The notes: generated by a model not told the origin, from the sequence alone. 64,000 bases of DNA from Alphaproteobacteria bacterium (GCA_965248835.1 CBDFLJ010000001.1:1760001-1824000), one strand, 5' to 3'. Shown: positions 4,994-26,404, counted from the first letter of the stretch. Program-made: numbers and translations.

Positions 4994-4996
4994 AGC

Positions 4997-6231
4997 ATGA
5001 ATGCCGCCTCCGGCGTCGATGAGGCCCGCCTCTGGCAACGGCACATGGATCTCGCCCGGCTGGGTGCAACGGACAAAGGCGGGGTCAACCGCCAGGCGCT
5101 GAGCGCCGAGGAATGCGCGGCCCGTGCGCTGCTCGCCCGATGGGCCGGTGAGCTCGGCTACGCGGTCCATGTCGATGGGATCTCGAACCTGTTCATCCGC
5201 CGCGAGGGCGCCGACCCCGCGCTCGCCCCGGTGCTGACCGGCTCTCATATAGACACCCAGCCGACGGGCGGCAAGTTCGACGGCGCCTTCGGGGTGCTCG
5301 CCGGGCTCGAGGCGCTCCAGGCGCTCGATGCGGTCGGCATCGAAACAAGCCGGCCGATTGAGGTCGTCGCCTGGCTCAACGAGGAGGGCTCGCGCTTCGC
5401 CCCGGGCATGATGGGCTCCGAGGCGTTCTGCGGCCTTCGCCGGCGCGATGAGATGATTGCCGTCACCGACCGTGCCGGGGTCCGGCTCGGCGATGTCCTG
5501 GGATCGGCGATCGAGGCAACGCCCGCCGCCGGGCGTCGCCGATCGGTTTCCCCGTGGCTGCCTTCGTCGAGGCCCATATCGAGCAGGGCCCCGAGCTCGA
5601 ACGGCAGGGAAAGACGATCGGCGTGGTGACCGGGATCCAGTGCGTCCGCCGGATGCGCGTGCGTATCACCGGCGAGGAGGCTCATGCCGGCACCACGCCC
5701 CGCCCGGCCCGCCGCGATGCCCTGTGGGAGGCCGCACGCGCGGTCTCGGCGCTGCACGACCGGCTCCATGTCGATGCCGACGTGCGCTTGACCGTGGGCC
5801 GGATGGAGATCACCCCCAACGTGCCCTCGGTGGTGGCCTCGCAGGTCGTCTTCTCGCTCGACATCCGCCATCCGGTGAGCGAAACCCTGGCCGGGCTCGA
5901 GGCCGAGGTCGCCGGCATCTGCCGGGACGCGCTGGTCGCCTGCCGGGCGGAGGCCTGGACCATTGCGGCGGCGCCGTCGGTCTGGTTCGACGAGACCGTC
6001 AGGCAGACCATCGAGGCGGTGGCCGGCGACCTCGGGCTCGCCCACATGCGGCTGTTCTCCGGCGCCGGGCACGATGCCCGCCAGCTCAGCCTGGTCTGTC
6101 CGACCGGCATGATCTTCGTGCCCTGCGCCGGCGGTATCAGCCACAACGAGGCCGAGAGCGCCACGCCGGCCGATCTCGCCGCCGGCACCCGCGTGCTCGC
6201 CGAGGCCCTGGTCCGGCTCGCCGCGCGCTGA
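4997..6231 (+). pseudogene. M20 Zn-dependent allantoate amidohydrolase / N-carbamoyl-amino-acid hydrolase, frameshifted near 5540
   Basis: ORF 4997-5629 has GSHIDT, GGKFDG, NEEGSRF; ORF 5554-6231 has EAHIEQGP, HAGTTP, SGAGHDA, GISHNEAE; one missing base joins them as RPIGFPVAAF. Confidence 0.8.
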
Positions 6232-8162: not shown

Positions 8163-9359
8163 TCACAGGCGCGGGTCGAGCGAGGGCAGCCCGAAGCGGA
8201 TGCGCCCGGCGTTGACCGACTGGATGTCCCAGGCCTGAGTGATCTGCATCGAGACCGCGTGCACGTCGCGCCAGGCGCGCATGAAGGGGCTGGTCTGGTC
8301 GAGCCCGCGCGCGCCCAGCAGCGGGTAAAGCCGCTCGACCGCGCGGACGCAGAGCTGGGTGGCATAGGCGTTGTTGCGCCGCCACCTGGCGCGTACCGGC
8401 AGCTCCGGGTGCTCGTCGGCCTCGGCGTAGCGCATCGATTCCTCGCCGCACTGGATCAGCAGCGCACCGGCGGCATCGATCTCCGAGGCGGCTTCCGCAA
8501 CCCGGATCTGCGCCGTCGGAAGCTCGGCCAGCTTGGCGCCGGTCACACCGGTGCGCTCGGCGAACAGGGTCTCGACATATTCGAGCGCGCCGCGGGCAAT
8601 GCCCAGCGCGGGCCCGGAAAAGATCTGCGTTCCCGTCGACCAGATCGAAATCCGGAACAGCGGCGAAGCGTTGCGTTCCGGGCTGAGCGAGCGGCCGCCG
8701 GACAGGTTGGCGGACGGCAGGGTCCGGTAGTCGGGAACGAACACCTCCTTCAGCAGGACCGATTTGCTGCCGGTGGCCAGCAGCCCGGTCGCGTTCCAGT
8801 CATCGACTACCGCGCATTCGCCGCGCGGGACCAGCACGAACCGGTGCTCCGGCGGACCGCTTTCGCGCGGCAGGAAGATCTGAAGGTTGAGCCAGTCGCA
8901 GTAGTCGACGCCGCTGGAGAAGCTCCACAGCCCGTCCAGCACCACGCCGCCGTCGACCTGTCTGGCGCCGCCGCCGGCCACGGCGAAACCCGAGGCCATC
9001 AGCGCCTCGGGGTTGTCGCCCCAGACATCGTCCTGGGCCTGCTCGTAGCCGCAGCCCAGCACCAGCGACTGGGCGGCGAGGTTGGTGAAGACCCAGGTGC
9101 TCGACCCGCAGCCGCGGCCGAGCTCGGCCGACAGATCGACCATGATGCGGTAGTCGCATTCCAGCCCGCCGAAATGGGCGGGCTGGAAGATGCGGTAGAA
9201 GCCCGCCTCGACGAACTCCCGATGGGTGATCTCGGGGATCACCCGGTTCGCTTCGGCCTCGTCGGCGCGCGCGCGCAGATCCGGGACCATGGCGGCCGCG
9301 CGCGCGATCAGCCCTTGATGCATCGCCTGGCGTTCGGCGCCGGCTGCGGCCCCTTCCAT
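8163..9359 (-). CDS. Flavin-dependent aromatic monooxygenase, oxygenase component (HsaA/C2-HpaH type, acyl-CoA dehydrogenase fold)
   Basis: 'GFYRIFQPAHFGG', 'GRGCGSSTW', 'WSFSSGVDYCDW', 'DDWNATGLLATGS', 'RAWRDVHA'. Confidence 0.85.
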   Translation of the reverse strand: MEGAAAGAERQAMHQGLIARAAAMVPDLRARADEAEANRVIPEITHREFVEAGFYRIFQPAHFGGLECDYRIMVDLSAELGRGCGSSTWVFTNLAAQSLVLGCGYEQAQDDVWGDNPEALMASGFAVAGGGARQVDGGVVLDGLWSFSSGVDYCDWLNLQIFLPRESGPPEHRFVLVPRGECAVVDDWNATGLLATGSKSVLLKEVFVPDYRTLPSANLSGGRSLSPERNASPLFRISIWSTGTQIFSGPALGIARGALEYVETLFAERTGVTGAKLAELPTAQIRVAEAASEIDAAGALLIQCGEESMRYAEADEHPELPVRARWRRNNAYATQLCVRAVERLYPLLGARGLDQTSPFMRAWRDVHAVSMQITQAWDIQSVNAGRIRFGLPSLDPRL

Positions 9360-9360
9360 G

Positions 9361-10998
9361 TCAGTCCTCCTCGCGCTCGACGTCGCGCACCGAGGTTTCG
9401 GGCACCAGCCCGGGCTGCTGGCGTTGCAGCGTGCGCCTGCCGTTCTCCAGATAATGCCCGTCGGCGGCGCGCTTCGCCGCCTGGTCCCAGTCCTCGGTCC
9501 AGTCGCCCAACGTATAGCCGTGCCAGGGCGATTCCGGCTTGAGGCCGGGCAGGCCCAGCCGCTCCCACAGGGCGCGCGCGCCTTCCATGTAGGCGCGCGC
9601 CGGCAAGGCCAGCGGCGGCATGCCGGATTTCATGGTCGCATCGATCAGCAGCGTAGAGTCCTCCTCGCCCGCGTGCTCGCGCTTGGGCCCGTGGCCCTGA
9701 CCGCGATGGGGAAGGATCGCGACGTCATCGGTCGGGTTATGGCGGTAGGCCATCGCCCAGAGCAGCGCATCGGCGTTGTCGGGATCGATGTCGTCATTGA
9801 CCGCGATGCAGATCTTGGAGCAGTCGCCCTTGAAGCTCGCCGTCCCGTAGAGCGCCCGCCAGACCTCGGTGCGCGGTGCGCCGCGCTCCAGCGTTACGAT
9901 GCTCACCCGCAACAGCCCGGTCAGCTTCTCGTGGAGCGCGACACCGGTGACCGCCTTCACCCCGAGCTGGTCGCGCAGGTGGGCGAGGAACAGCGGCTCG
10001 TAGGCGACGCGCTTGATCACCGAGGATTCGCTCGGTGCGACCTGGCTGATATAGGACGGGATCACCGGGTGCGCCTTGCGGGTGATCGCGCTCACCCGCA
10101 TCGGCAGGTTGTACTCCTCCAGCGCCACATGGCCGTGGCTCTCGCCGAACGGACCCTCCGGCTCCAGCATGGTGGTATCGATCATCCCCTCGATCACCAT
10201 CTCGGCCTCGGCCGGTACCAGCAGGTCGACGGTCTTGGCGCGCACGACGTTGATCGGCTCGCCGGCCAGCCCGCCGGCGATGTCGAACTCGTCGACATCG
10301 ACCTGCAGCTTCTGCGGACCCATGAACGCCACCAGCGGCGGGCAGCCAAGCACGATCGCGCACGGCAGGCCCTCGCCGCGCGCCTTGCATTTCTGCCAAT
10401 GGACGTAGCCGCCGGCCCCGCCCACCCGGGTCGCCATACGCACCACCAGCCGATCGGGCGCCTTCAGCCCGGCGCGGTAGGTGCCCATGTTCTGCACCCC
10501 CGTCTCCGGGTCCTTGGTGATGACGTTGGTGGCCGCAAGGGTCGGCGCGCTGTCGAAGCCGGGCGTCGAGATCGGGATCGGCAGGGCATCCAACCCGTTG
10601 CCCGGACCCCGCAGGGCCTCGCCCTCGATGACGACCTCCTGGCACGGCCCCTCGTTGACCAGCCGCGGCGGCACCGGGTTCGCCATCGCGTGGTCCCAGC
10701 GCGCCGGGATGTCGGCGACCTCGGCGCGCATGCCCTGGCTGTAGATGGCTTTGTTGGCCGCGAGCGCGCCGATCACCACCGGGATGTCGTAACGCCGGTC
10801 CAGGCTGTCGGTGACGGTGTTGAACAGGAAGGCCTTGCGCTCGCGCTCCTCCAGCCCGCCGCGGAACTGCCAGCGGACCAGCGGGTGCATCTCGGTGTCC
10901 TTGTTGACCGGCTCGTCGATCCGCAGCAGCAGCCCGGCCGCATCCAGCACCTCCAGATGCTCCTGCAGGTCGGCATAGCCGCGCCGCGCATGCACCAT
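9361..10998 (-). CDS. UbiD-family (prFMN-dependent) decarboxylase
   Basis: 'QNMGTYR', 'VPAEAEMVIEG', 'EGPFGESHG', 'VNDDID', 'LLIDAT'. Confidence 0.9.
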   Translation of the reverse strand: MVHARRGYADLQEHLEVLDAAGLLLRIDEPVNKDTEMHPLVRWQFRGGLEERERKAFLFNTVTDSLDRRYDIPVVIGALAANKAIYSQGMRAEVADIPARWDHAMANPVPPRLVNEGPCQEVVIEGEALRGPGNGLDALPIPISTPGFDSAPTLAATNVITKDPETGVQNMGTYRAGLKAPDRLVVRMATRVGGAGGYVHWQKCKARGEGLPCAIVLGCPPLVAFMGPQKLQVDVDEFDIAGGLAGEPINVVRAKTVDLLVPAEAEMVIEGMIDTTMLEPEGPFGESHGHVALEEYNLPMRVSAITRKAHPVIPSYISQVAPSESSVIKRVAYEPLFLAHLRDQLGVKAVTGVALHEKLTGLLRVSIVTLERGAPRTEVWRALYGTASFKGDCSKICIAVNDDIDPDNADALLWAMAYRHNPTDDVAILPHRGQGHGPKREHAGEEDSTLLIDATMKSGMPPLALPARAYMEGARALWERLGLPGLKPESPWHGYTLGDWTEDWDQAAKRAADGHYLENGRRTLQRQQPGLVPETSVRDVEREED

Positions 10999-11167
10999 CC
11001 CCGCCACTCCCCGAAGAACGCTCAACCCGGATTTGCCGCCATGATGCCATAGCCGGCCCGGCGGGAAACAGCCTTCTCTGGCGCGGCCCGGTGTGGCACT
11101 GTCATGCTCGGCATGTTCGGGCCGGTCCAGCGTGCTCGGCACATGCCCGGTCAGGCGGAGGGGTTGG

Positions 11168-12151
11168 ATGGGCAAGCCCGACATTACCGACGCGCAGCGG
11201 CCGGCGCGTACACGGGTCGGCGGCGTCGACGTCAAGCGCACCGCGCAGTTCCGCGCGCGCTTCCCGCCCGCGGCCAAGCGCCACCTGTTCATCCGCGACC
11301 ATGTGCTGTTCGAACAGCGCGACACGCCGGTCAATCCCGACCGGACCGAGGACATCGACGCGGACGCGACTGCGCGCTGGATCAAGGACTGGGTGCTGGA
11401 GGCCGGCGCCGATGCCGTCGGCATCGCAGCCTATGACGAGCGCTTCACCTTCGCCCAGGCCGACCAGCCCGGCCACACCGCGGTGATCGTCTACGCGATG
11501 GCGATGAAATACGACTACATGGCCGATATCGGCCCGCGGTCCCAGGACGAGGTCCACCGGATCTACTACCGACTCGACGATCTCGGTGTCCGGCTCGCCC
11601 ACCAGATCGGCGGGTTCGGCTACCGCGCGCGGATGCAGGCCAACGGCGGCGATATCCCGCTGGTGCCGTTCGCCTGGCTCGCCGGGCTGGGCGAGCTCGG
11701 CAAGCACGGCTCGCTGATCTCGACCGAGCTGGGCTCGTCCTTCCGACTGGGGGCGGTGACCACCGACCTGCCGCTGACCCCCGACGGGCCGCGCGATTCG
11801 GGGATCGACGAGGTCTGCGCCTCGTGCAACATCTGCACCCGGTTCTGCCCGGGCGATGCGATCAAGCCCGACAAGCAGACCGTCGCCGGTGTCGAGCGCT
11901 GGATCGTCGACCGGCCGGCTTGCGAGCCGTGGTTCCACAAGCTCTATGGCTGCAAGATCTGCCTGATGGTCTGTCCGTTCAACGCCAAGAGCATCTTCGC
12001 CGACAGCTTCAAGCCGACCGCGCGCGACATCCGCGACGCCAAGGACGCGAACGGCCTGCTGGCGCTGATCGAATCGCGCACCGAGATGCACTACGACGCG
12101 TTCGATTACGGCGCCTCGGGCGCACCCGCGATCGCGCCCGACGAGGACTGA
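11168..12151 (+). CDS. Reductive dehalogenase / QueG superfamily protein (cobalamin and 2x Fe-S), no TAT signal
   Basis: 'GADAVGIA', 'AGLGELGKHGSLI', 'FRLGAVTTDLPLTPD', CxxCxxCxxxCP (CASCNICTRFCP), C...GCKICLMVCP. Confidence 0.8.
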   Translation: MGKPDITDAQRPARTRVGGVDVKRTAQFRARFPPAAKRHLFIRDHVLFEQRDTPVNPDRTEDIDADATARWIKDWVLEAGADAVGIAAYDERFTFAQADQPGHTAVIVYAMAMKYDYMADIGPRSQDEVHRIYYRLDDLGVRLAHQIGGFGYRARMQANGGDIPLVPFAWLAGLGELGKHGSLISTELGSSFRLGAVTTDLPLTPDGPRDSGIDEVCASCNICTRFCPGDAIKPDKQTVAGVERWIVDRPACEPWFHKLYGCKICLMVCPFNAKSIFADSFKPTARDIRDAKDANGLLALIESRTEMHYDAFDYGASGAPAIAPDED

Positions 12152-12165
12152 GACGGCGCGCCGGG

Positions 12166-12187
12166 CGGACCGGACGTCGCCGGTCCG
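12166..12187. terminator. GC-rich hairpin between the dehalogenase-like and deiodinase-like genes
   Basis: CGGACCGG-acgtcg-CCGGTCCG perfect 8-bp stem; no immediate U-tract. Confidence 0.35.
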
Positions 12188-12263
12188 GGCAGGCGGTTTG
12201 ACAGGCTCCGGCCGAAATGGTCGGTTCCGGTCATCGCATGGATATCAACGAGGATCGAGGCTG

Positions 12264-12953
12264 ATGGCCGAACCGGGACTCTCCGTCGAGCAGAGAGCCA
12301 TGAAGGGCGCGCAGATGACGCCCGAGGAACGCAAGCGGATGTGGTTGTCGATTTCCGACATCACCGAGGCCGAGTTCGACGCCTACCATGACTGGCGCCG
12401 GGAACGTCAGTCGCGGGTGCCGCAGCCCGGCAGTCCGGCGCCGGATTTCGAGCTCGAAGGGCTCGGCGCCGACGGCGCGCGCACCGGCCGGCGGGTGCGG
12501 CTGTCGGCGCTCAAGGGCACGCCGGTGGCGCTGGTCTTCGGGTCCTATACCTGACCCCCCTATCGTAGTTGGGCCGTGCGCCTGAACGAGATCTATGACC
12601 GCCACAAGGACCGGGACATCCGGTTCTACGCCGTCTATATCCGCGAGGCCCATCCCAGCAATGGCTGGCAGGTGCCGGAAAACCTGGAGGAGAACATCCT
12701 CTACGAGGCGCCCACCACCGATGCGGCGCGCACCGAGATCGCCGCCGCCTGCCGGGTGGCGATGGACATCCAGATGCCGATGCTGATCGACTGGATCGGC
12801 AACGACGTGGAGGAGAAATACGTCTCCACCCCGATCCGGCTGTTCGTCGTCGATCCCGACGGGCGCATCGCCTATACCGGCGATGCCGGACCGTTCGGCT
12901 TCGATCCGGACTCCTGGGAGGAGGCGATCAAGGCCCAGATCGCCGCCGCCTGA
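12264..12953 (+). CDS. Iodothyronine deiodinase-like thioredoxin-fold selenoprotein (Sec at TGA 12552-12554)
   Basis: ORFs 12198-12554 and 12576-12953 share a frame; read-through gives PVALVFGSYT-U-PPY...VYIREAHPSNGW...GPFGF, matching deiodinase FGS(C/A)TUP(P/S)F and YIxEAHxSDGW motifs. Confidence 0.88.
12563..12589 (+). promoter_or_regulatory. Candidate bacterial SECIS element
   Basis: TCGT-(AG)-TTGGGC-[CGTGC]-GCCTGA-ACGA can pair as a stem-loop; the loop starts 20 nt after the TGA and has G at loop position 2. Confidence 0.6.
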
Positions 12954-13165
12954 GACGCGGCCGCGGCCCGCTCGGCACCGCCGTGCCGGCCGGGGGGGTG
13001 GGGAGTCCGGGTGGTTTTATCGTTCCGATGCGGCGCGGGCTGTGTCTGCGTGCTGACGGCACGCACCGGTCCCGGAATGCGCCTTGCGGCGGCGCGCTTG
13101 ACCGCGTTGCCCGCTTCGGCAATAGACTTGCACGCGAGCGACCTGGAGAGCGAGCCATCGAGACG

Positions 13166-14353
13166 GTGAAGCGGGCGCTTCGGCTCATTGCCGCGGCGGC
13201 GATATTCCTGCCGGTGATGACGGGCGGGTATTCGGCGGCGGCGCAAACCTTCGACGAAGTCCTCGCGGCATACGACCGCGGCGACTACGCTACGGCCTAC
13301 CGCGGATTCCGAAGCCTTGCGGAGCAGGGCATTGCCACCGGTCAGTTCGGTCTCGGGTTCCTGTACGCCAACGGCAAGGGCGTCCCCCGGGATGATGCTT
13401 TGGCCCTGAGGTGGTACCGCCGCGCCGCCGCGCAGGGCCATGCCGCCGCTCAGTTCAATCTCGGGCTCATGTACTATAACGGCGAGGGCGTCCCCCGGGA
13501 TTATGCCGAGGCGGCGAGGTGGTACCGCCGCGCCGCCGCGCAGGGCCGTGCCGCCGCGCAGTTCAATCTCGGGTTCATGTACGGCAACGGCAAGGGCGTC
13601 CCCCGGGACTATGCCGAGGCGGCGAGGTGGTACCGTCGCGCCGCCGAGCAGGGCCATGCCCACGCTCAGTTCAATCTCGGGCTCATGTACTATAACGGCG
13701 AGGGTGTCCCTCGGGACGAAGCCGAGGCGGCGACGTGGTACCGCCGCGCCGCCGCGCAGGGCCGTGCCGCCGCGCAGTTAAATCTCGGGTTCCTGTACTA
13801 CAAGGGCGAGGGCGTCGCCCAGGACTACGCCTTGGCGGTGACATGGTACCGCCGCGCCGCAGAGCAAGGCGATGCCCGCGCTCAGTTCGGTCTTGCACTC
13901 ATGTACGAACTCGGCCGAGGTGTTCCCCGGGACTTCGTTGAGGCGCACAGGTGGTTCAACCTTGCCGCCGCCCGATCCTCGGCCTCGCAGAAGGCCTTGC
14001 GTAAACGGGCCGTGCAACGCCGCGACCACGTTGCGGCGCGTCTGACGGCGGCGGCGCTCGAGCGGGCCCGGCGGCTGGCGAGAACCTGGCGGCCCGGGAC
14101 GGAGACGGCTCTGCCGACACCGCCGGCGGCAGGCAAGGACGGCGGTATGCGTAGCCGGGTGGCCATGCTGCAACGCGCTCTCGCGCGGCTCGGCTACGAC
14201 GCCGGGTCCGCCGACGGGGTCCTCGACTCCAAGACCCGTGCTGCGATCCGGGCATTCCAGGCATCGGCCGGGCTGCCGGCGGACGGCCGCCTGTCCGAAC
14301 GGCTGGAGAGCGCGGTCATATCCGCCCTTCTCGCCGCCGGCGCCGCGCCATAA
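13166..14353 (+). CDS. Secreted Sel1-repeat protein with C-terminal peptidoglycan-binding domain
   Basis: Signal peptide, six 36-aa Sel1 repeats, PGBD 'LQRALARLGYDAGSADGVLDSKTRAAIRAFQ...GLPADG'. Confidence 0.88.
   Translation: MKRALRLIAAAAIFLPVMTGGYSAAAQTFDEVLAAYDRGDYATAYRGFRSLAEQGIATGQFGLGFLYANGKGVPRDDALALRWYRRAAAQGHAAAQFNLGLMYYNGEGVPRDYAEAARWYRRAAAQGRAAAQFNLGFMYGNGKGVPRDYAEAARWYRRAAEQGHAHAQFNLGLMYYNGEGVPRDEAEAATWYRRAAAQGRAAAQLNLGFLYYKGEGVAQDYALAVTWYRRAAEQGDARAQFGLALMYELGRGVPRDFVEAHRWFNLAAARSSASQKALRKRAVQRRDHVAARLTAAALERARRLARTWRPGTETALPTPPAAGKDGGMRSRVAMLQRALARLGYDAGSADGVLDSKTRAAIRAFQASAGLPADGRLSERLESAVISALLAAGAAP
13319..13966 (+). repeat. Six tandem 108-bp Sel1-coding repeats
   Basis: Recurring 'tggtaccgccgcgccgcc..cagggc...cagttcaatctcggg' with 108-nt period. 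Confidence 0.85.
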
Positions 14354-19756: not shown

Positions 19757-20011
19757 TCAGCGGGACGGCGCACCCACTACCCCCAAAGCCGACTTGGGCG
19801 CTGTAGCAGCGTGCACGGTGGATTTGGAGGCCTTCTGACGGCCTTCTATCCGCGCCCTCAGATTGAGCACCCCTTGGGTCTCCATCGCGCGGCCGAATGC
19901 CCTGGCGGCCGCGTTCCATTGGTTCTTGCACGCGGTCGAGCAGAAGCGCTTCGGGGAGCCGCCGCGCGTCGGAGCCTCGAACGGCTCGCCGCACCAGGGG
20001 CATTCGGTCAT
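19757..20011 (-). CDS. Small Zn-finger protein of mobile-element type
   Basis: CPWCGEPF...KRFCSTAC (CxxC / FCSxxC); lies next to an att-like site. Confidence 0.55.
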   Translation of the reverse strand: MTECPWCGEPFEAPTRGGSPKRFCSTACKNQWNAAARAFGRAMETQGVLNLRARIEGRQKASKSTVHAATAPKSALGVVGAPSR

Positions 20012-20144
20012 GCCGCGCCGATCTCCGGCGCCCGATCGTCGATGCTGGTAGTTAGACAAATCGCCCGTAAGGCATTGATTCGCCGTCGGGCGATTCAGGG
20101 GTGAAGGTGTTTAACCGTATGGGAATCATCGAGAAAATCTAAGC

Positions 20145-20189
20145 TTCCTAATCCGTAGGTCGCAGGTTCGCATCCTGCCGGCCTCGCCA
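20145..20189 (+). mobile_element. 3' half of tRNA-Arg(CCT); att-like site of an integrated element
   Basis: TTCCTAA-TCCGT-AGGTC-GCAGG TTCGCAT CCTGC-CGGCCTC-G-CCA: anticodon loop, T-arm and CCA present; 5' acceptor and D-arm absent. Confidence 0.75.
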
Positions 20190-20301
20190 CCGCCGACAAG
20201 GAACGCGCGGACACCTTCCGTCCGATCGGTTTTCTTGCCGGATGGAACCGCGAACCTGTCGCGCCCCCGATGCTGGATGAGGACACAAGCGACGCTTCCG
20301 C

Positions 20302-21183
20302 TCAGGGGCGGCCCGCGCGGTGCTCCTGCCAGACGCTATGGAAGTTGCCGATGAAGATCAGGAGCGCGCCGATCAGCACGAACGGGTTCAGCCCTTCCTT
20401 GTAGAGCAGGTAGGCAACACCGGCGGTGATCGGCAGGCGCAGGAAGTCGATGGGCCCGACGACGGTCGCATCGGCCAGCGCCAGCGCGCGGGTCATCGAA
20501 TAGTGGGCCAGCACACCCGTCACGCCGATCATCACCAGCCACGGCGCGTGCTCCCAGACCGGCGTGGTCCAGTTGAACATCGCCGCGATGCCGGAAATCG
20601 GCAACTGGACGATCTGCATGTACAAGACGATGGTGAACGCGCCCTCGGTCCGGGTGAGCGCCTTGACGATCACGTTCGAGGTGGCGAAGAAGACCGCCGA
20701 TCCGATGATCACCAGGGCTGCCGGGTCGACCGCCTCCACGCCGGGCCGCAGGATCACCATGACGCCGAGAAAGCCGAGCCCGATCGCGACCAGCCGGTTG
20801 CGCGTCAGCGCCTCGCCCAGGAAGATCGCCGCCAGCACCGCCACCCAGATCGGTGTGGTGAACTCCAGGGCGGTGACCACCGCCAGCGGCAGCAGGGTGA
20901 TGGCGTAGATCCAGGACGCCTGGCCGACGAAGTTGGCGGCGTTGCGCAAGACGTGCATGCCCAAACGGCTGGTGACCAGGACCGAGGGCCCGCGGGCCAG
21001 CGCGGTCGGCGTCAGGATGAGCAGCGAGATGGTGTTGCGGATGAACAGGATCTCGAAGACGTCGAGATCATCGGCCAGCGCGCGCACGGCGATCATCTGG
21101 GCGAGGAACGCCGCGATCGTCACGCCCATCCAGGCCGCCGCGCCGAGCGCGTCGTCGGGCCGGCCGGGGCCGACCGGGGCCAT
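20302..21183 (-). CDS. DMT/EamA family transporter
   Basis: About 10 TM segments, 'FLGEAL', 'VILRPG', 'DFLRLP'. Confidence 0.88.
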   Translation of the reverse strand: MAPVGPGRPDDALGAAAWMGVTIAAFLAQMIAVRALADDLDVFEILFIRNTISLLILTPTALARGPSVLVTSRLGMHVLRNAANFVGQASWIYAITLLPLAVVTALEFTTPIWVAVLAAIFLGEALTRNRLVAIGLGFLGVMVILRPGVEAVDPAALVIIGSAVFFATSNVIVKALTRTEGAFTIVLYMQIVQLPISGIAAMFNWTTPVWEHAPWLVMIGVTGVLAHYSMTRALALADATVVGPIDFLRLPITAGVAYLLYKEGLNPFVLIGALLIFIGNFHSVWQEHRAGRP

Positions 21184-22100
21184 TATTGCGACGCCGGCGC
21201 GAGGCGCCGCCGATCCAGCTTCGCCTCGCTCCGGGCGGTATAGGTCGTCGAACCGAAGATCACCGCGGCACCGATCCAGGTCCACTTGTCGGGCACCTCG
21301 GCGAAGATCAGCCATGCCGCAAGCGCGGTGAACGGCAACCGCAGGAAGTCCATCGGGGCGACCAGGCTCGCCTCCAGCATGTGCAGCGACCGGGTCAGGC
21401 AGTAGGGCGCGGCGGTGCCGATCACCGCCAACGCGAACAACAGCGGGATCTCCTGCCATGTCGGCCCCTGCCACAGGATGATCGTCGGAACGGCGCCGAC
21501 CACGACTATCAGCAGGTTCGAATAGAAGCCGATGGCGAGGGCGGAGTCGGTCCTGGTGAGCATCTTGATGAAGATGACCGCGCCGGCGTAGAAGACCGCC
21601 GAGCCGAGCACCAGGAAGGCCGGCAGATCGACGGCGACGATGCCCGGGCGCAGGACGACCAGGACGCCCAGGAAACCGATCCCGGTCGCGCTCCACCGCC
21701 GCCACCCGATGCCTTCGGACAGGAACAGGGCGGCCAGGATCACCGTGAACAGCGGCAGGGTGAAGTGTAGCGCCGTCGCCTCGGCCAGCGGCATCGCCAG
21801 GATCGCCTGAAACCACATGGTCATCGCGATGAAATTTGCCGCCGCGCGGGCGAAATGAAGCCTCAGCACCGCGGTTCGCAGGCTCCGGATATCGTGCCAC
21901 AGGAAATACATCCCCAGCGCGATGGCGCCGATCATCGAGCGGTGGAAGATGATCTCGATGGGCGTCATGTCGGTGGCGAGCTCGCGCACCAGGACGGGCG
22001 TCAGCGTGAACAGCATCATCGAGACGACCGCCCAGGCGATGCCGTTCAGGACGCGCCCGGGGCCATGCTGTCCCGCGCCGTCATGCTGGGTTGTCGCCAT
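21183..22100 (-). CDS. DMT/EamA family transporter
   Basis: About 10 TM segments, 'VVLRPG', 'DFLRLP'; coupled to the downstream paralog. Confidence 0.88.
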   Translation of the reverse strand: MATTQHDGAGQHGPGRVLNGIAWAVVSMMLFTLTPVLVRELATDMTPIEIIFHRSMIGAIALGMYFLWHDIRSLRTAVLRLHFARAAANFIAMTMWFQAILAMPLAEATALHFTLPLFTVILAALFLSEGIGWRRWSATGIGFLGVLVVLRPGIVAVDLPAFLVLGSAVFYAGAVIFIKMLTRTDSALAIGFYSNLLIVVVGAVPTIILWQGPTWQEIPLLFALAVIGTAAPYCLTRSLHMLEASLVAPMDFLRLPFTALAAWLIFAEVPDKWTWIGAAVIFGSTTYTARSEAKLDRRRLAPASQ

Positions 22101-22165
22101 GTGCGAACACTAGCCCATGGCCCTGCGCGTGTCGTGCGGCAACGGGCGGCGGGCCGGACCGAGCC

Positions 22166-23710
22166 TCACCGGCCGGCGCGGCGGTCCCAGTCGCGGCGCA
22201 GCACGTTGCGGTCGATCTTGCCGCGCTCGTTCTTGGGGATTTCGGCGCAGATCACGATGTCGCGCGGCCGCTTGAAGTCCGGCAGCACGGCCGCGCAATG
22301 CGCGCGCACCGAGTCCTCCCGGAGGGCGGCGCCGGGCCGGGGCGCGACATAGCTCACCACCGCCTCGCCGTAGACCGGATCGGCGGTGCCGATGCTTGCG
22401 GCCTCGACGATGTCCGGATGCAGCACCAGCGCGTTGTCGATCTCCAGCGGTGCGATGTTGACCCCGCCGCGGATGATCACGTCCTTCGCCCGCCCGGTGA
22501 CGTGCAGGTAGCCGTCCTCGTCGAGATAGCCGAGGTCCCCGGTCTTCAGCCGGCGGCCGCGGATCCGCTCCAGCCGGCCGCCGGGGTGCAGGTAGCCGTA
22601 GCCGTTCTGCGCCCCGCCGATCTCGATCTCGCCGACCGCGCCGGCGGGCAGCCCGGTGCCGTCGGGCGCAACGATTGCGAGGTTCTGATAGAGCCCGGGC
22701 GGGCCGACGCTGCCGATCCGCCGGGCGCCGGCATGATTGCCCGCGACCACGCCGCCCTCGCTCATGCCGTAGAGCTGGACCAGCTCGATGCCGTAGGTCT
22801 CCTCGAACCGGCGGTGCTGGTCGACCAGCAGCGGCGCCGTCGAGCAGCTCATGAATCGCACGCCGTCGAAGCCCCCGCCGGGCGGCGGGCCGTCGCGATC
22901 GAGCAGCATGTTCACCACCGTCGGCACGCCGATCACCACGCTGGGCCGGTGGGTGTCGATCCATTCGAAAAAACCGGACTTCGAGAACCGGCGCGTGAAC
23001 AGGACCGTCGCGCCGACAACCAGGCAGGGCATCAGCGTCAGCATGTGCGAGGACGCCCAGCTGAACGACCGGTATTCGAGCACCCGGTCCGCGGGGCCCA
23101 GCTTCCACATGTCGATGGTCTGCCGGGCGATCCAGAAATAGTTGCCGAACTCGTGGAGCACGCCCTTGGGCGCGGCCGACGTGCCGGAGGTGAAGCTGAT
23201 CACCGCGACGGTGTCGGGATCGACCGGCCCGGTGGCCACCCCGGCCGCCGCGTCCGCTGCGGGCAGCCCGCGCACGGCCTCGAACAGCGCGGTCATCGAC
23301 AGGCGCCGGAAGTCGCCGTCGGGCAGGCTCCGGGCCTCGATCGGGGTATCGAAGACCACCAGGCGCGGGCCGACGCGCGCGATCATTTCCTCGATATGGG
23401 CGGCGTTTACCTCGACATTGATCGTGCAATAGCTTGCGCCGTAGGCCAGCGTCGCGAAGTAGAGCGCGACCTGGTCGAGCGTGTTCTCGCTCAGCACCAG
23501 CACCCGGTCGCCGCGGCCGATCCCGTGATCGGCGAAGTACCGCGCGAACTGTCCGGCGAGCGTGTGCATCCCGGCGAAGCTCAGCGCGCGCCCTTCCTCG
23601 ATCGCATGCAGGAAAGTCTTGCCGGGCGCCGCTGCCGCATGCGCACGGATCAGGCAGGCGACATCGCGATAGTGCGCCCGGTCGGGCGTCTGCAACGGGG
23701 CCTGTGGCAT
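22166..23710 (-). CDS. AMP-dependent acyl-CoA synthetase/ligase
   Basis: 'FTSGTSAAPKG', 'YGMSE', 'TGDLG', 'GRAKDVIIRGG', 'PKNERGKI'. Confidence 0.92.
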   Translation of the reverse strand: MPQAPLQTPDRAHYRDVACLIRAHAAAAPGKTFLHAIEEGRALSFAGMHTLAGQFARYFADHGIGRGDRVLVLSENTLDQVALYFATLAYGASYCTINVEVNAAHIEEMIARVGPRLVVFDTPIEARSLPDGDFRRLSMTALFEAVRGLPAADAAAGVATGPVDPDTVAVISFTSGTSAAPKGVLHEFGNYFWIARQTIDMWKLGPADRVLEYRSFSWASSHMLTLMPCLVVGATVLFTRRFSKSGFFEWIDTHRPSVVIGVPTVVNMLLDRDGPPPGGGFDGVRFMSCSTAPLLVDQHRRFEETYGIELVQLYGMSEGGVVAGNHAGARRIGSVGPPGLYQNLAIVAPDGTGLPAGAVGEIEIGGAQNGYGYLHPGGRLERIRGRRLKTGDLGYLDEDGYLHVTGRAKDVIIRGGVNIAPLEIDNALVLHPDIVEAASIGTADPVYGEAVVSYVAPRPGAALREDSVRAHCAAVLPDFKRPRDIVICAEIPKNERGKIDRNVLRRDWDRRAGR

Positions 23711-23839
23711 CGATTTCGCGCCCGATGACGGTCGGCGGCCATCCTAGCACGGATGGGCAAAGCCGGCCGTATTGCCGGCCGCGCGGATTCGGGGCACGAT
23801 CGGCCGCCACACTCAGCCGCCATACTGTGGGAGGGACCG

Positions 23840-24859
23840 ATGTCGACAGCGCCAAGCGTGCGCGGGGGGGCCAACGATTTCCACGACGCGATCGAGGATG
23901 CGCATGTCGTCGCGCTGTGGGAGATGTTCCGCGGCGAGGGTGGTCCGGGGATCAAGCCCGAGCCGGCGTTTCATTGGCCGTGGCCGGTCATCGGGCCGTT
24001 GCTCGACCGGGCGGTGGCGGAAACCGACATGGACAATGCCGAACGCCGGGTGCTGTCGCTCGCCAACCCGGCCTATGGCCGCGAGGACGACTATCGCGCG
24101 ACGACCAATCTGAATGCCGGGCTGCAGATCCTGATGCCCGGCGAGAACGCGCGGCCCCACCGGCATTCCATGGATGCGCTGCGGTTCGTGATCGAAGGCG
24201 AGGGTGCGGCGACCACGGTCGACGGCAAGCGCTGCGAGATGGTGCGCGGCGACCTGATCCTGACGCCGGCCTGGACCTGGCACGAGCACGAACACAGGGG
24301 CGAGTCCCGTGTCGTCTGGCTCGACTCGCTCGACGTGCCGCTTGTCATGGGCATGGACGTGACGTTCTTCGAGCCCGGCCCGGCCGGCGATTTCCCGGAA
24401 CTGCCGGCGGACCCGGCGTTCGCCGCGGCGGGCCTGGTTCCCGCCGGGACGGTGACCACCGCCTACTCGCCGCTGTTCCGTTATCCCTGGGCGGAGGCGC
24501 GCGCGGCGCTGGCCGCCGCGCCGGCCGAAGACGACGGCTCGCGGCTGATGCGCTATGTCAACCCGGCGACCGGCGGTCCGGTCTTGTCGCGGCTGGACTG
24601 CTATCTGCTGGGGCTCGAGCGCGGCAAGCCGACCCGCCGCTACCGGACGACCAGCAACGCGGTCTGTTTCGTGGTCGAGGGCGAGGGCGAGAGCACGATC
24701 GGCGACGTCACGATCGGCTGGGGCGTCAACGACATCTTCACCCTGCCGCATTGGAGCTGGGCCTCGCATACGGCATCGAGCGAGACCGCGGCGATCTTCC
24801 AGTCGACCGACCGCGAGGTCATGAACCGGCTCGGGCTGCTGCGCGAAGAGCGGGACTAG
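23840..24859 (+). CDS. Gentisate 1,2-dioxygenase-like bicupin
   Basis: 'AERRVLSLANP', 'PHRHS', 'LTPAWTWHEH', 'LDSLDVP'. Confidence 0.88.
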   Translation: MSTAPSVRGGANDFHDAIEDAHVVALWEMFRGEGGPGIKPEPAFHWPWPVIGPLLDRAVAETDMDNAERRVLSLANPAYGREDDYRATTNLNAGLQILMPGENARPHRHSMDALRFVIEGEGAATTVDGKRCEMVRGDLILTPAWTWHEHEHRGESRVVWLDSLDVPLVMGMDVTFFEPGPAGDFPELPADPAFAAAGLVPAGTVTTAYSPLFRYPWAEARAALAAAPAEDDGSRLMRYVNPATGGPVLSRLDCYLLGLERGKPTRRYRTTSNAVCFVVEGEGESTIGDVTIGWGVNDIFTLPHWSWASHTASSETAAIFQSTDREVMNRLGLLREERD

Positions 24860-24924
24860 CGCTTTTCCGGATCACGCCATGTCGCCGCGCCGGGCGCCGG
24901 TATCCATCGGCCTGTCCGCCCGGT

Positions 24925-25230
24925 TCAGTCCCCGCTGCCCGGGACCATGTCGCGGGCGTAGGCCCGGGCGGCCTCGCTGTCGTTGTGGTTGTAGACCCCG
25001 CCGTGAAAGAACCGGCTGACCTGCGGCAGGAAATAGGGGTGGACGCCGAGCCGGGCGAGGGTGCGGATGTCGATCGCCCGGAACGCCTCCTTCTCGGGCT
25101 CGGACAGGCCGTACGCCTCCATGACGCTTTCCATGTCCTGGCGAAAGCGCTGAAACAGCGCCATGTCGCGGCGGATCTCGAAGATCATCTTGTTCGCCGG
25201 CAGCGTCCGGTCGACATCGGCAATCGGCAT
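24925..25230 (-). CDS. LigA-like small subunit of type II extradiol dioxygenase
   Basis: 101 aa, 'YGLSEPEKEAFRAIDIRTLARLGVHPYFL' LigA-like pattern. Confidence 0.65.
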   Translation of the reverse strand: MPIADVDRTLPANKMIFEIRRDMALFQRFRQDMESVMEAYGLSEPEKEAFRAIDIRTLARLGVHPYFLPQVSRFFHGGVYNHNDSEAARAYARDMVPGSGD

Positions 25231-25281
25231 ATCGGCCTCCCGTCTGGCTCCCGCCCGCAGCGGGGCTGCTGAGGACTCCTC

Positions 25282-26247
25282 TCAAACCGACAATGCGTCA
25301 GGCGTTGCGTAGTTCAGGAAACTCTCGGGCAGCGCCGCGCCCCAGTATACGCCGGTGCCGCGGGCCGCCTCGTCCCAGACCACGGTCTCGAAATCGGGTG
25401 CGAAGATGAAGAAGCCGCTGGCATAGACCTCGACCCGGTTGCCGCCCGGCTCGTAGCTGTAGATGTAGAACGCCTGGGAGTTGTTGTGCTTGGACGGGCC
25501 GGCCTCGATGAACACGCCGTTCTCCATGAACAGGTCGGCCGCGCGCAGGACGTCGGCCCGGTCATCGACCCATAGCGAGAAGTGGTGCAGCCGGCCGTGC
25601 TGGCCGGTCGTATCCACGATATAGGCGATCTCGTGATGGGTCGCCGAGGACGACATCCACGAGCCGATCTCGCGCGTGCCGTTCTCGTAGACCACCTGCT
25701 CGCGCAGCTTCAGCCCGAGCACGTCGCGGGCGAACCGGCGGTTGGCGCCGACATCCTTGCACAGGACCGCCAGGTGGTCGGTCCTGCGCACCCCGACGCC
25801 GTGGCGCGGATAGCGCATCGGCAGGTTGTTCAGCGTCGAGCGCAGGCCCTCCGGCGCGATATAGCGCTGCTCGTCGTAATAGATCTCCATCGCGTGGCCG
25901 TCCGGGTCGCGGAAGCAATAGGCGGCGCCGTGGCCGAAATCGCCGTTCGACCAGCCGGTGCCGAGGCCGGCGCGCTCGATCGCCGCAACCCGGCGGTCCA
26001 GCGCCGCCCGGCTGACCGTCCGCCAGGCGATGTGCCCGACACCGGGCTTTGCGGCCTCGGTCAGCTTGAGCGTCGTTGCGGCATAGTCGCCATAGCCGCG
26101 CAGGTAGACCGATTGGCCCTCGCTGTGAACCGCCTCCATCCCCAGGATGTCCGCGAAATACCACAGGCTCTCCTGCGGCTTGGGGGTCAGCAGCTCGACA
26201 TGGCCGAGATGGGCGATGTCCTGGATCGGCTCTTGAGCTTCAGGCAT
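25282..26247 (-). CDS. Catechol 2,3-dioxygenase (VOC extradiol dioxygenase)
   Basis: 'IAHLGHVELLTP', 'RLHHFSLW', 'GPSKH', 'YEPGGNRVE'. Confidence 0.9.
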   Translation of the reverse strand: MPEAQEPIQDIAHLGHVELLTPKPQESLWYFADILGMEAVHSEGQSVYLRGYGDYAATTLKLTEAAKPGVGHIAWRTVSRAALDRRVAAIERAGLGTGWSNGDFGHGAAYCFRDPDGHAMEIYYDEQRYIAPEGLRSTLNNLPMRYPRHGVGVRRTDHLAVLCKDVGANRRFARDVLGLKLREQVVYENGTREIGSWMSSSATHHEIAYIVDTTGQHGRLHHFSLWVDDRADVLRAADLFMENGVFIEAGPSKHNNSQAFYIYSYEPGGNRVEVYASGFFIFAPDFETVVWDEAARGTGVYWGAALPESFLNYATPDALSV

Positions 26248-26404
26248 GGTGGACGTTCCCCTCGAATCCCGTTGCCGCCGGACATCATGCCACGCAAGCC
26301 CGCGTTGATCGATGCCAATCCGCTGCACCGTGGCTCACCTGCCGCCGAGCGGCCGGCCGGCTTCGTTGGATCGGCCGCGTGGCTGCATGAATTGCGGGAT
26401 CGCC

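Follow-up and report, generated by a model that had tools for sequence, protein, structure and literature searches.

Two genes that lie in the same orientation, 112 bp apart, were followed up in a stretch of 64,000 nucleotides from the genome of an alphaproteobacterium (Alphaproteobacteria bacterium, GCA_965248835.1, CBDFLJ010000001.1:1760001-1824000), which we call the window. Gene A (11168-12151) encodes a protein related to reductive dehalogenases (RdhA-like), and gene B (12264-12953) a deiodinase-like protein with a predicted selenocysteine (Sec), whose frame is open only if the TGA at 12552-12554 is read through. The two are probably independent genes that have come to lie side by side in one narrow lineage of alphaproteobacteria, and not a conserved functional pair. 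The original prediction had described the arrangement of two co-oriented genes about 110 bp apart correctly; it had taken them for a dehalogenation module with two chemistries or, alternatively, for an enzyme with its redox partner, and neither of these readings is borne out by our survey.

Conservation and transcription of the gene pair

For gene A, we surveyed the best 80 of more than 576 loci in species-representative genomes. A deiodinase-like gene lies downstream of the RdhA-like gene in two of the 80 (L010 and L011), where gene A is 82-84% identical. In the closest relative (L009, 91%), synteny ends at window position 12167 and the deiodinase-like gene is absent. The part of this locus downstream of the RdhA-like gene (L009:7000-10000), where the deiodinase-like gene would be, is GC-rich and holds only spurious-looking open reading frames (ORFs). 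Two more distant loci (L061, L064) carry only a peroxiredoxin (Prx)-like gene of 25-26% identity, 2-3 kb off and on the other strand.

The survey from the side of gene B agrees with this. Of 400 other genomes sampled from the class, 7 contain a deiodinase-like gene. Six loci from four of these seven genomes were examined, and in none is there an RdhA-like gene within 8 kb. Among the best 80 of more than 579 metagenomic stretches, one locus has an RdhA-like gene within 6 kb of the deiodinase-like gene, and none has it adjacent; at this one locus (L143), an RdhA-superfamily gene of 28% identity lies 4 kb from the deiodinase-like gene on the opposite strand. Of the 400 sampled genomes, 20 have an RdhA-like relative at E <= 1e-40; the four that carry a good deiodinase-like gene are not among them. 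Such relatives were seen, on other contigs, in two genomes whose deiodinase-like matches are only weak (34% identity).

We conclude that the two genes became neighbours in a single, lineage-specific event and that the arrangement is limited to a few close relatives. As far as sequence comparison goes, a conserved two-enzyme module is not supported, and the same neighbourhood and co-occurrence counts stand against a redox partnership. A literature search for a pairing of RdhA-like and deiodinase-like genes returned no description. The pairing seems to be undescribed in print, for the reason, as our survey suggests, that it does not form a recurrent system.

The second of the earlier proposals, in which the deiodinase-like selenoprotein is the electron donor or redox partner of a reductase-less RdhA-like enzyme, deserves a separate comment. 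No fused reductase domain was seen in gene A, nor a ferredoxin or flavodoxin gene beside it, and gene B is predicted to have a thioredoxin-type fold; a donor of this kind would fit both observations. However, 78 of the 80 RdhA-like loci are without such a neighbour, and thus the selenoprotein is not a general partner of the RdhA-like family, and the four sampled genomes with a good deiodinase-like gene carry no RdhA-like relative. Moreover, selenol/thiol couples are two-electron donors, and their potential lies far above the one-electron need from [4Fe-4S] cluster to cob(I)alamin. We regard this explanation as highly improbable.

The original prediction had cautioned that the two genes may be transcribed separately, pointing to a hairpin and a TTGACA box between them. 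Both are present (Table 1), the hairpin being GC-rich with 8 bp. The TTGACA and the Shine-Dalgarno motif GAGGA are kept in L010 and L011, although the rest of the spacer has only 61% identity, which hints at a promoter of its own for gene B; on this sequence evidence such a promoter is probable. This part of the caution thus stands, while a consensus scan of 10900-13100 returned neither a sigma-70 promoter nor an intrinsic terminator.

Table 1. Features of the two genes, their spacer and the divergent neighbours, in positions of the window.
Feature	Position	Strand	Remarks
Gene A, cytoplasmic 'mini' RdhA-superfamily protein	11168..12151 (including stop)	+	327 amino acids; class-III cobalamin / 2x[4Fe-4S] type, as predicted
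Codon of Tyr133	11564..11566	+	aligned with NpRdhA Tyr426 (catalytic Tyr); invariant 22/22; residue count on the HMMER alignment
Codon of Arg193	11744..11746	+	aligned with NpRdhA Lys488 (position altered in the K488Q entry 6zy0); invariant in the family
Fe-S motif 1, CxxCxxCxxxC(P)	11816..11848	+	C217/220/223/227; invariant in 22/22 family members
Fe-S motif 2, C252...C262xxC265xxxC269(P)	11921..11974	+	invariant 22/22
Spacer, 112 bp	12152..12263	+	hairpin 12166-12187; TTGACA 12198-12203; Shine-Dalgarno GAGGA 12250-12254
Gene B, deiodinase-like selenoprotein (Prx/thioredoxin fold, predicted)	12264..12953 (including stop)	+	229 amino acids
UGA read as Sec (U97), predicted, in FGSYT-U-PPY	12552..12554	+	TGA conserved in homologs
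Bacterial SECIS-like hairpin	12563..12589	+	upper stem 12570-12574/12580-12584; loop CGUGC 12575-12579; lower stem 12563-12565/12587-12589
Codon of Cys163	12750..12752	+	invariant in 9/9 aligned homologs
UbiD-family decarboxylase, divergent neighbour	9361..10965	-	nearest named model VdcC (hydroxyarylic acid decarboxylase)
HsaA / p-hydroxyphenylacetate-hydroxylase-like flavin monooxygenase, oxygenase subunit	8163..9359	-	downstream of UbiD

Gene A and the RdhA/QueG superfamily

Judged by sequence profiles and a structure prediction, gene A is a member of the RdhA superfamily and RdhA-like rather than QueG. This assignment follows from the RDH hidden Markov model (HMM), the solved RdhA structures and the predicted fold, all of which score above QueG, and from the true QueG present elsewhere in the genome. 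Against the NCBIfam model RDH (TIGR02486), gene A reaches 108.8 bits (E = 4.6e-31; curated cut-off 160.35 bits), and against QueG (TIGR00276) 77.5 bits (E = 9.3e-22; cut-off 200 bits), so that it lies under both cut-offs and closer to RdhA. Its best solved relatives by sequence are NpRdhA of Nitratireductor pacificus (4ras, 1.1e-20) and PceA (8q4h, 3e-20; 4uqu, 5e-18), compared with 8e-10 (5d6s) and 2e-7 for QueG structures. An AlphaFold2 model, built on 22 homologs (predicted local distance difference test, pLDDT, 86; predicted TM-score, pTM, 0.87), superposes best on NpRdhA (TMq 0.73-0.74, E = 4e-17), followed by PceA (TMq 0.57-0.64), with E values of about 1e-17 to 1e-16 across both; for QueG, TMq is 0.41-0.45 and E is 2e-8. 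The cobalamin-binding core fold is present in the predicted model.

Other members of the superfamily are found in the same genome. A bona fide QueG is encoded at C1:747318-748316 with 438.7 bits, and the possibility that gene A is the housekeeping QueG was ruled out by comparison with this score. A close NpRdhA ortholog lies on contig C2 at about 1063000-1065500 (L112; 550 bits to 6zxu over 400 amino acids). With 147 bits, this ortholog likewise falls under the cut-off of the RDH model, and the cut-off is therefore not decisive. There are two further mini RdhA-like paralogs (C1:760777 and C2:2474006). Gene A is neither the housekeeping QueG nor of the NpRdhA type.

The motifs are in good agreement with this assignment. 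All eight Cys residues of the two Fe-S motifs are invariant in the 22 homologs, and Fer4 Pfam matches fall into the same region. The catalytic Tyr and the Lys/Arg position of solved dehalogenases are kept as Tyr133 and Arg193; their equivalents in PceA are, presumably, Y246 and R305. In place of NpRdhA Arg552, the family has an invariant Phe256. Met1 is common to all 22 homologs, and we therefore place the start at 11168. The N-terminus (MGKPDITDAQRPARTRV...) shows no RR motif followed by a hydrophobic stretch, i.e., no twin-arginine leader, and no small membrane (rdhB-like) ORF was seen flanking the gene; thus both marks of the respiratory RdhA subtype, the leader and the adjacent rdhB anchor, are missing. 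The superfamily, the Fe-S motifs and the lack of leader and rdhB had all been stated in the original prediction, and these statements hold.

NpRdhA (4ras, 6zxu, 6zy1), a characterised reductive dehalogenase of the catabolic, cytosolic kind, is the closest known system in sequence and predicted fold. Like gene A, it has two [4Fe-4S] motifs and the Tyr/Lys positions, and it is cytoplasmic with neither twin-arginine leader nor RdhB. Unlike gene A, it comprises about 700 amino acids with a vestigial N-terminal second cobalamin-binding domain. The 327-residue protein of gene A aligns to NpRdhA residues 348-574 only, plus a weak second match, at about 24% identity, and it coexists with the separate true NpRdhA ortholog. 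QueG (5d08, 5d6s) shares the superfamily, a similar size, the cytoplasmic location and the architecture of cobalamin and two [4Fe-4S] clusters, but differs from gene A in the profile and fold scores given above. A 'simplified cytosolic type' of RdhA-like proteins, short and without vestigial or reductase domain, was predicted from metagenomes; the accessible part of that paper presents no biochemistry for it, and places it mainly in Desulfobacterota and Chloroflexota with a mean of 395 amino acids (Microbiome 2025, PMC12219181). Gene A is also short and cytosolic, but has 327 amino acids and is alphaproteobacterial; we liken it to this type by the description in that part of the paper and not by clade.

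The gene A family is large and strongly conserved. It comprises 869 clusters at E <= 0.001 in the searched length window, and its proteins are mostly labelled hypothetical or mis-named. Mean column identity is 70% (22 sequences), loci from Chloroflexota, Acidobacteria and Gemmatimonadota are 48-60% identical to gene A, and an Arg-rich N-terminal segment (R14, R31, R38, R43) is invariant. A maximum likelihood tree combined 11 of the 22 family members with six superfamily members encoded in the same genome, among them QueG and the NpRdhA ortholog (C-terminal half only). It is dominated by long branches (QueG 6.46, NpRdhA-like 4.74) and includes no respiratory RdhA reference; none of the five Dehalococcoidia or other genomes searched for such references gave a match above the RDH cut-off.

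These data also bear on whether gene A is a dehalogenase at all. QueG reduces an epoxide, and by analogy gene A may be a class-III cobalamin reductase that acts on a different, conserved substrate and whose likeness to RdhA reflects ancestry only. The unusually high conservation within the family and across phyla, the invariant Arg-rich N-terminus, the exchange of Arg552 for an invariant Phe and the score under the RDH cut-off are consistent with this, as are neighbouring genes for oxygenases of non-halogenated aromatic or sulfonate catabolism. On the other hand, the genome's NpRdhA ortholog falls under the same cut-off, the catalytic Tyr and Arg are kept, and the predicted fold is nearest to solved dehalogenases. 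Such an enzyme is possible, if somewhat doubtful.

Gene B and its selenocysteine codon

By its sequence, gene B encodes a homolog of deiodinases with a predicted Sec. The deiodinase active-site motifs that had first been noticed in it are borne out by the Pfam model T4_deiodinase (PF00837; 67.1 bits, E = 1.9e-18, cut-off 27 bits) and by mouse Dio3 (4tr3; E = 2.4e-14). The motifs FGSYT-U-PPY and YIREAHPSNGW are kept, and the deiodinase motif residues E128, H130 and U97 are retained. For both genes, the matches far exceed what chance would give. The match to AhpC-TSA (PF00578; 41.7 bits, cut-off 26) is weaker than that to the deiodinase model. NCBIfam deiodinase_rel (NF038285) gives 160.8 bits, below its cut-off of 250, and the match covers model positions 176-340 of 347 only; the N-terminal part of this model is absent from gene B.

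The comparative evidence makes a strong case that the UGA encodes Sec. The TGA is kept in L010, L011, four further alphaproteobacterial genomic loci and 79 of the 80 metagenomic loci, while the remaining one failed to match the motif search for the Sec site. The genome has selB (443.9 bits, over the cut-off) and a tRNA-Sec. At 18-32 nt past the UGA, we observe a hairpin that resembles a bacterial selenocysteine insertion sequence (SECIS). Covariation in this helix was compared in a set of seven sequences and then in 86. In the larger set, 92.5% of 400 cells are paired versus 79.3% in shuffles, and 41 cells with double changes were observed versus 10.9 in shuffles; none of 500 shuffles equalled the observed value, and slid controls reached 17.5-46%. 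The single-sequence fold of the region past the UGA is unremarkable (z = +1.26), and the hairpin is clear only by comparison. A Cys-containing homolog (L103) is without the SECIS hairpin sequence. Another homolog, from a metagenome (L191:6214-6258), has an additional in-frame TAG five codons past the Sec codon and may be a pseudogene or contain a sequencing error.

Deiodinase-like selenoproteins of bacteria have been on record since 2005 and are presumed to be redox proteins; the available parts of the two sources assign them no function (PMC1088965, Sargasso Sea; PMC13188914, a 2026 review). Gene B is a member of this family, as described there, with PF00837, the predicted active-site Sec and the SECIS-like element right after the UGA, and does not depart from it in any essential feature. 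The table in the review gives UxxC as the family motif, compared with U-P-P-Y in gene B, where the distant, invariant Cys163 is a candidate resolving cysteine. With the catalytic domain of Dio3 (4tr3), gene B shares the FGSxT-U-PPF-type and YIxEAHPSxGW motifs and, as these suggest, a Prx-like thioredoxin fold. It differs from Dio3 in its SECIS, which is of bacterial type and inside the coding region, and in a conserved soluble N-terminal extension of about 50 amino acids. Animal deiodinases carry an N-terminal membrane anchor, which gene B lacks. Thyroid hormones are not expected as its substrate.

Gene neighbourhoods and functional interpretation

Apart from each other, the two families have different neighbours. 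Among the 78 gene A family loci with a called gene within 400 bp, the neighbours vary: TauD (8), luciferase-like monooxygenase (8), UbiD (7), LigXa-like Rieske (5) and Amidohydro_2 (5). The deiodinase-like gene is found beside selA in five loci and beside selB in three, and its other neighbours are heterogeneous catabolic genes. At six loci (L099, L140, L143, L148, L149, L152), a second selenoprotein gene lies next to it. The encoded protein is AhpC/TSA (Prx)-like and of UxxC type, with an in-frame TGA in FYRGHW-U-P(Y/F)CRRQL (e.g., L152:1535-1876 on the minus strand and upstream). Together, the selA/selB, deiodinase-like and Prx-like selenoprotein genes look like a small selenoprotein island.

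In the window, gene A diverges from a UbiD-family decarboxylase gene, which is followed by an HsaA-like hydroxylase gene. UbiD is the sole gene linked to gene A in all three close relatives (L009, L010, L011); the hydroxylase behind it was matched in L009 and L010 only. The L011 locus breaks off after residue 113 of UbiD. Elsewhere, at L151:244-2640, a Sec deiodinase-like gene is immediately preceded, in the same orientation, by a UbiD gene whose product is 54% identical to that of the window; this 3.9-kb metagenome contig holds no RdhA-like gene.

Several points count against two independent genes. In three genomes whose proteins have diverged to 82-84% (gene A) and 75-78% (gene B) amino-acid identity, the two genes still lie in the same orientation with about 110 bp between them, so that the arrangement is not a very recent accident. 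UbiD recurs independently beside both families, in 7 of 78 gene A family loci (within 400 bp) and in 3 of 80 gene B family loci, and both may share a pathway theme through it. Each family has a likeness to aryl-halide-reducing enzymes. Since there is no canonical terminator between the genes, read-through co-transcription is possible. Finally, only 40 of the 80 metagenomic loci are at least 5 kb long, and some neighbours in the shorter half are unobservable. A local functional link, perhaps via UbiD-type hydroxyarylic acid metabolism, is thus conceivable.

One form of such a link would be a lineage-specific catabolic island, in which UbiD, the phenol hydroxylase, the mini-RdhA and the Sec deiodinase-like protein act jointly on halogenated hydroxybenzoates or halophenols, and the two reductive enzymes take off different halogens or positions. 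The gene order UbiD / HsaA-like / RdhA-like / deiodinase-like is shared by L010 and, in part, by L011, and this fits such an island, as do the recurrence of UbiD beside both families and the retained catalytic residues of RdhA in gene A and of deiodinases in gene B. But the pair stems from one evolutionary event, and L009 retains UbiD, hydroxylase and RdhA-like gene without the deiodinase-like gene. In addition, the RdhA-like family is 50-70% identical across phyla, unlike substrate-diversified dehalogenases, and a deiodinase homolog of Dictyostelium proved not to be the DIF dechlorinase, according to the part of that report available to us (PMC3205185). We consider joint action of this kind unlikely, and an island that serves natural bromo- or iodo-hydroxybenzoates and phenols, with a B12-dependent and a Sec-dependent enzyme, quite unlikely.

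For two independent genes, the following functions are proposed. Gene A would be a soluble, stand-alone enzyme of the 'simplified cytosolic' RdhA-like branch of class-III cobalamin enzymes. A low-potential donor would reduce the two [4Fe-4S] clusters held by the eight invariant Cys, and these in turn the cobalamin, which would reduce the substrate near Tyr133 and Arg193. The substrate may be an aromatic acid or phenol, halogenated or not, as the divergent UbiD and phenol-hydroxylase genes and the many oxygenases in the neighbourhoods of the family suggest. Gene B would be a cytoplasmic, Sec-containing, Prx-like oxidoreductase of the deiodinase family. SelB would decode the UGA at 12552 via the downstream SECIS hairpin, and Sec97 could attack a halogen on an activated phenol, a peroxide or a disulfide. 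The resulting selenenyl species would be resolved by Cys163 and then reduced by cellular thiol systems.

The whole region around the pair is a catabolic neighbourhood. More genes of aromatic catabolism are seen at 20000-26400 (LigA-like, glyoxalase/extradiol dioxygenase, cupin, AMP-dependent ligase and EamA transporter). Between the deiodinase-like gene and an Amidohydro_2 gene, the window has a gene (12983-14353) whose product combines Sel1 repeats with a peptidoglycan-binding domain. It looks like an insertion in the lineage of the window, because in L011 Amidohydro_2 follows directly after the deiodinase-like gene, with no Sel1-repeat gene in between. Farther away, at 4994-6231, the match to a peptidase M20 domain is divided between two ORFs that overlap (4994-5629 and 5452-6231), with one half in each; the M20 gene may be frameshifted or split here, or the assembly may be wrong.

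Both families have been described before and are widespread, with more than 576 confirmed stretches in species-representative genomes for the RdhA-like and more than 579 in metagenomes for the deiodinase-like family. For gene B, the analysis provides a well-supported Sec annotation; standard gene callers would split the gene at the UGA. If the local pairing were functional, it would offer the first substrate hypothesis for each family. Should the catabolic island prove true, two evolutionarily unrelated chemistries of reductive dehalogenation, by cobalamin and by selenol, would meet in one pathway, and bacterial deiodinase homologs would obtain their first function. The survey itself redirects attention to other partners: UbiD decarboxylases and oxygenases for the RdhA-like family, and selA/selB together with the Prx-like selenoprotein for the deiodinase-like family.

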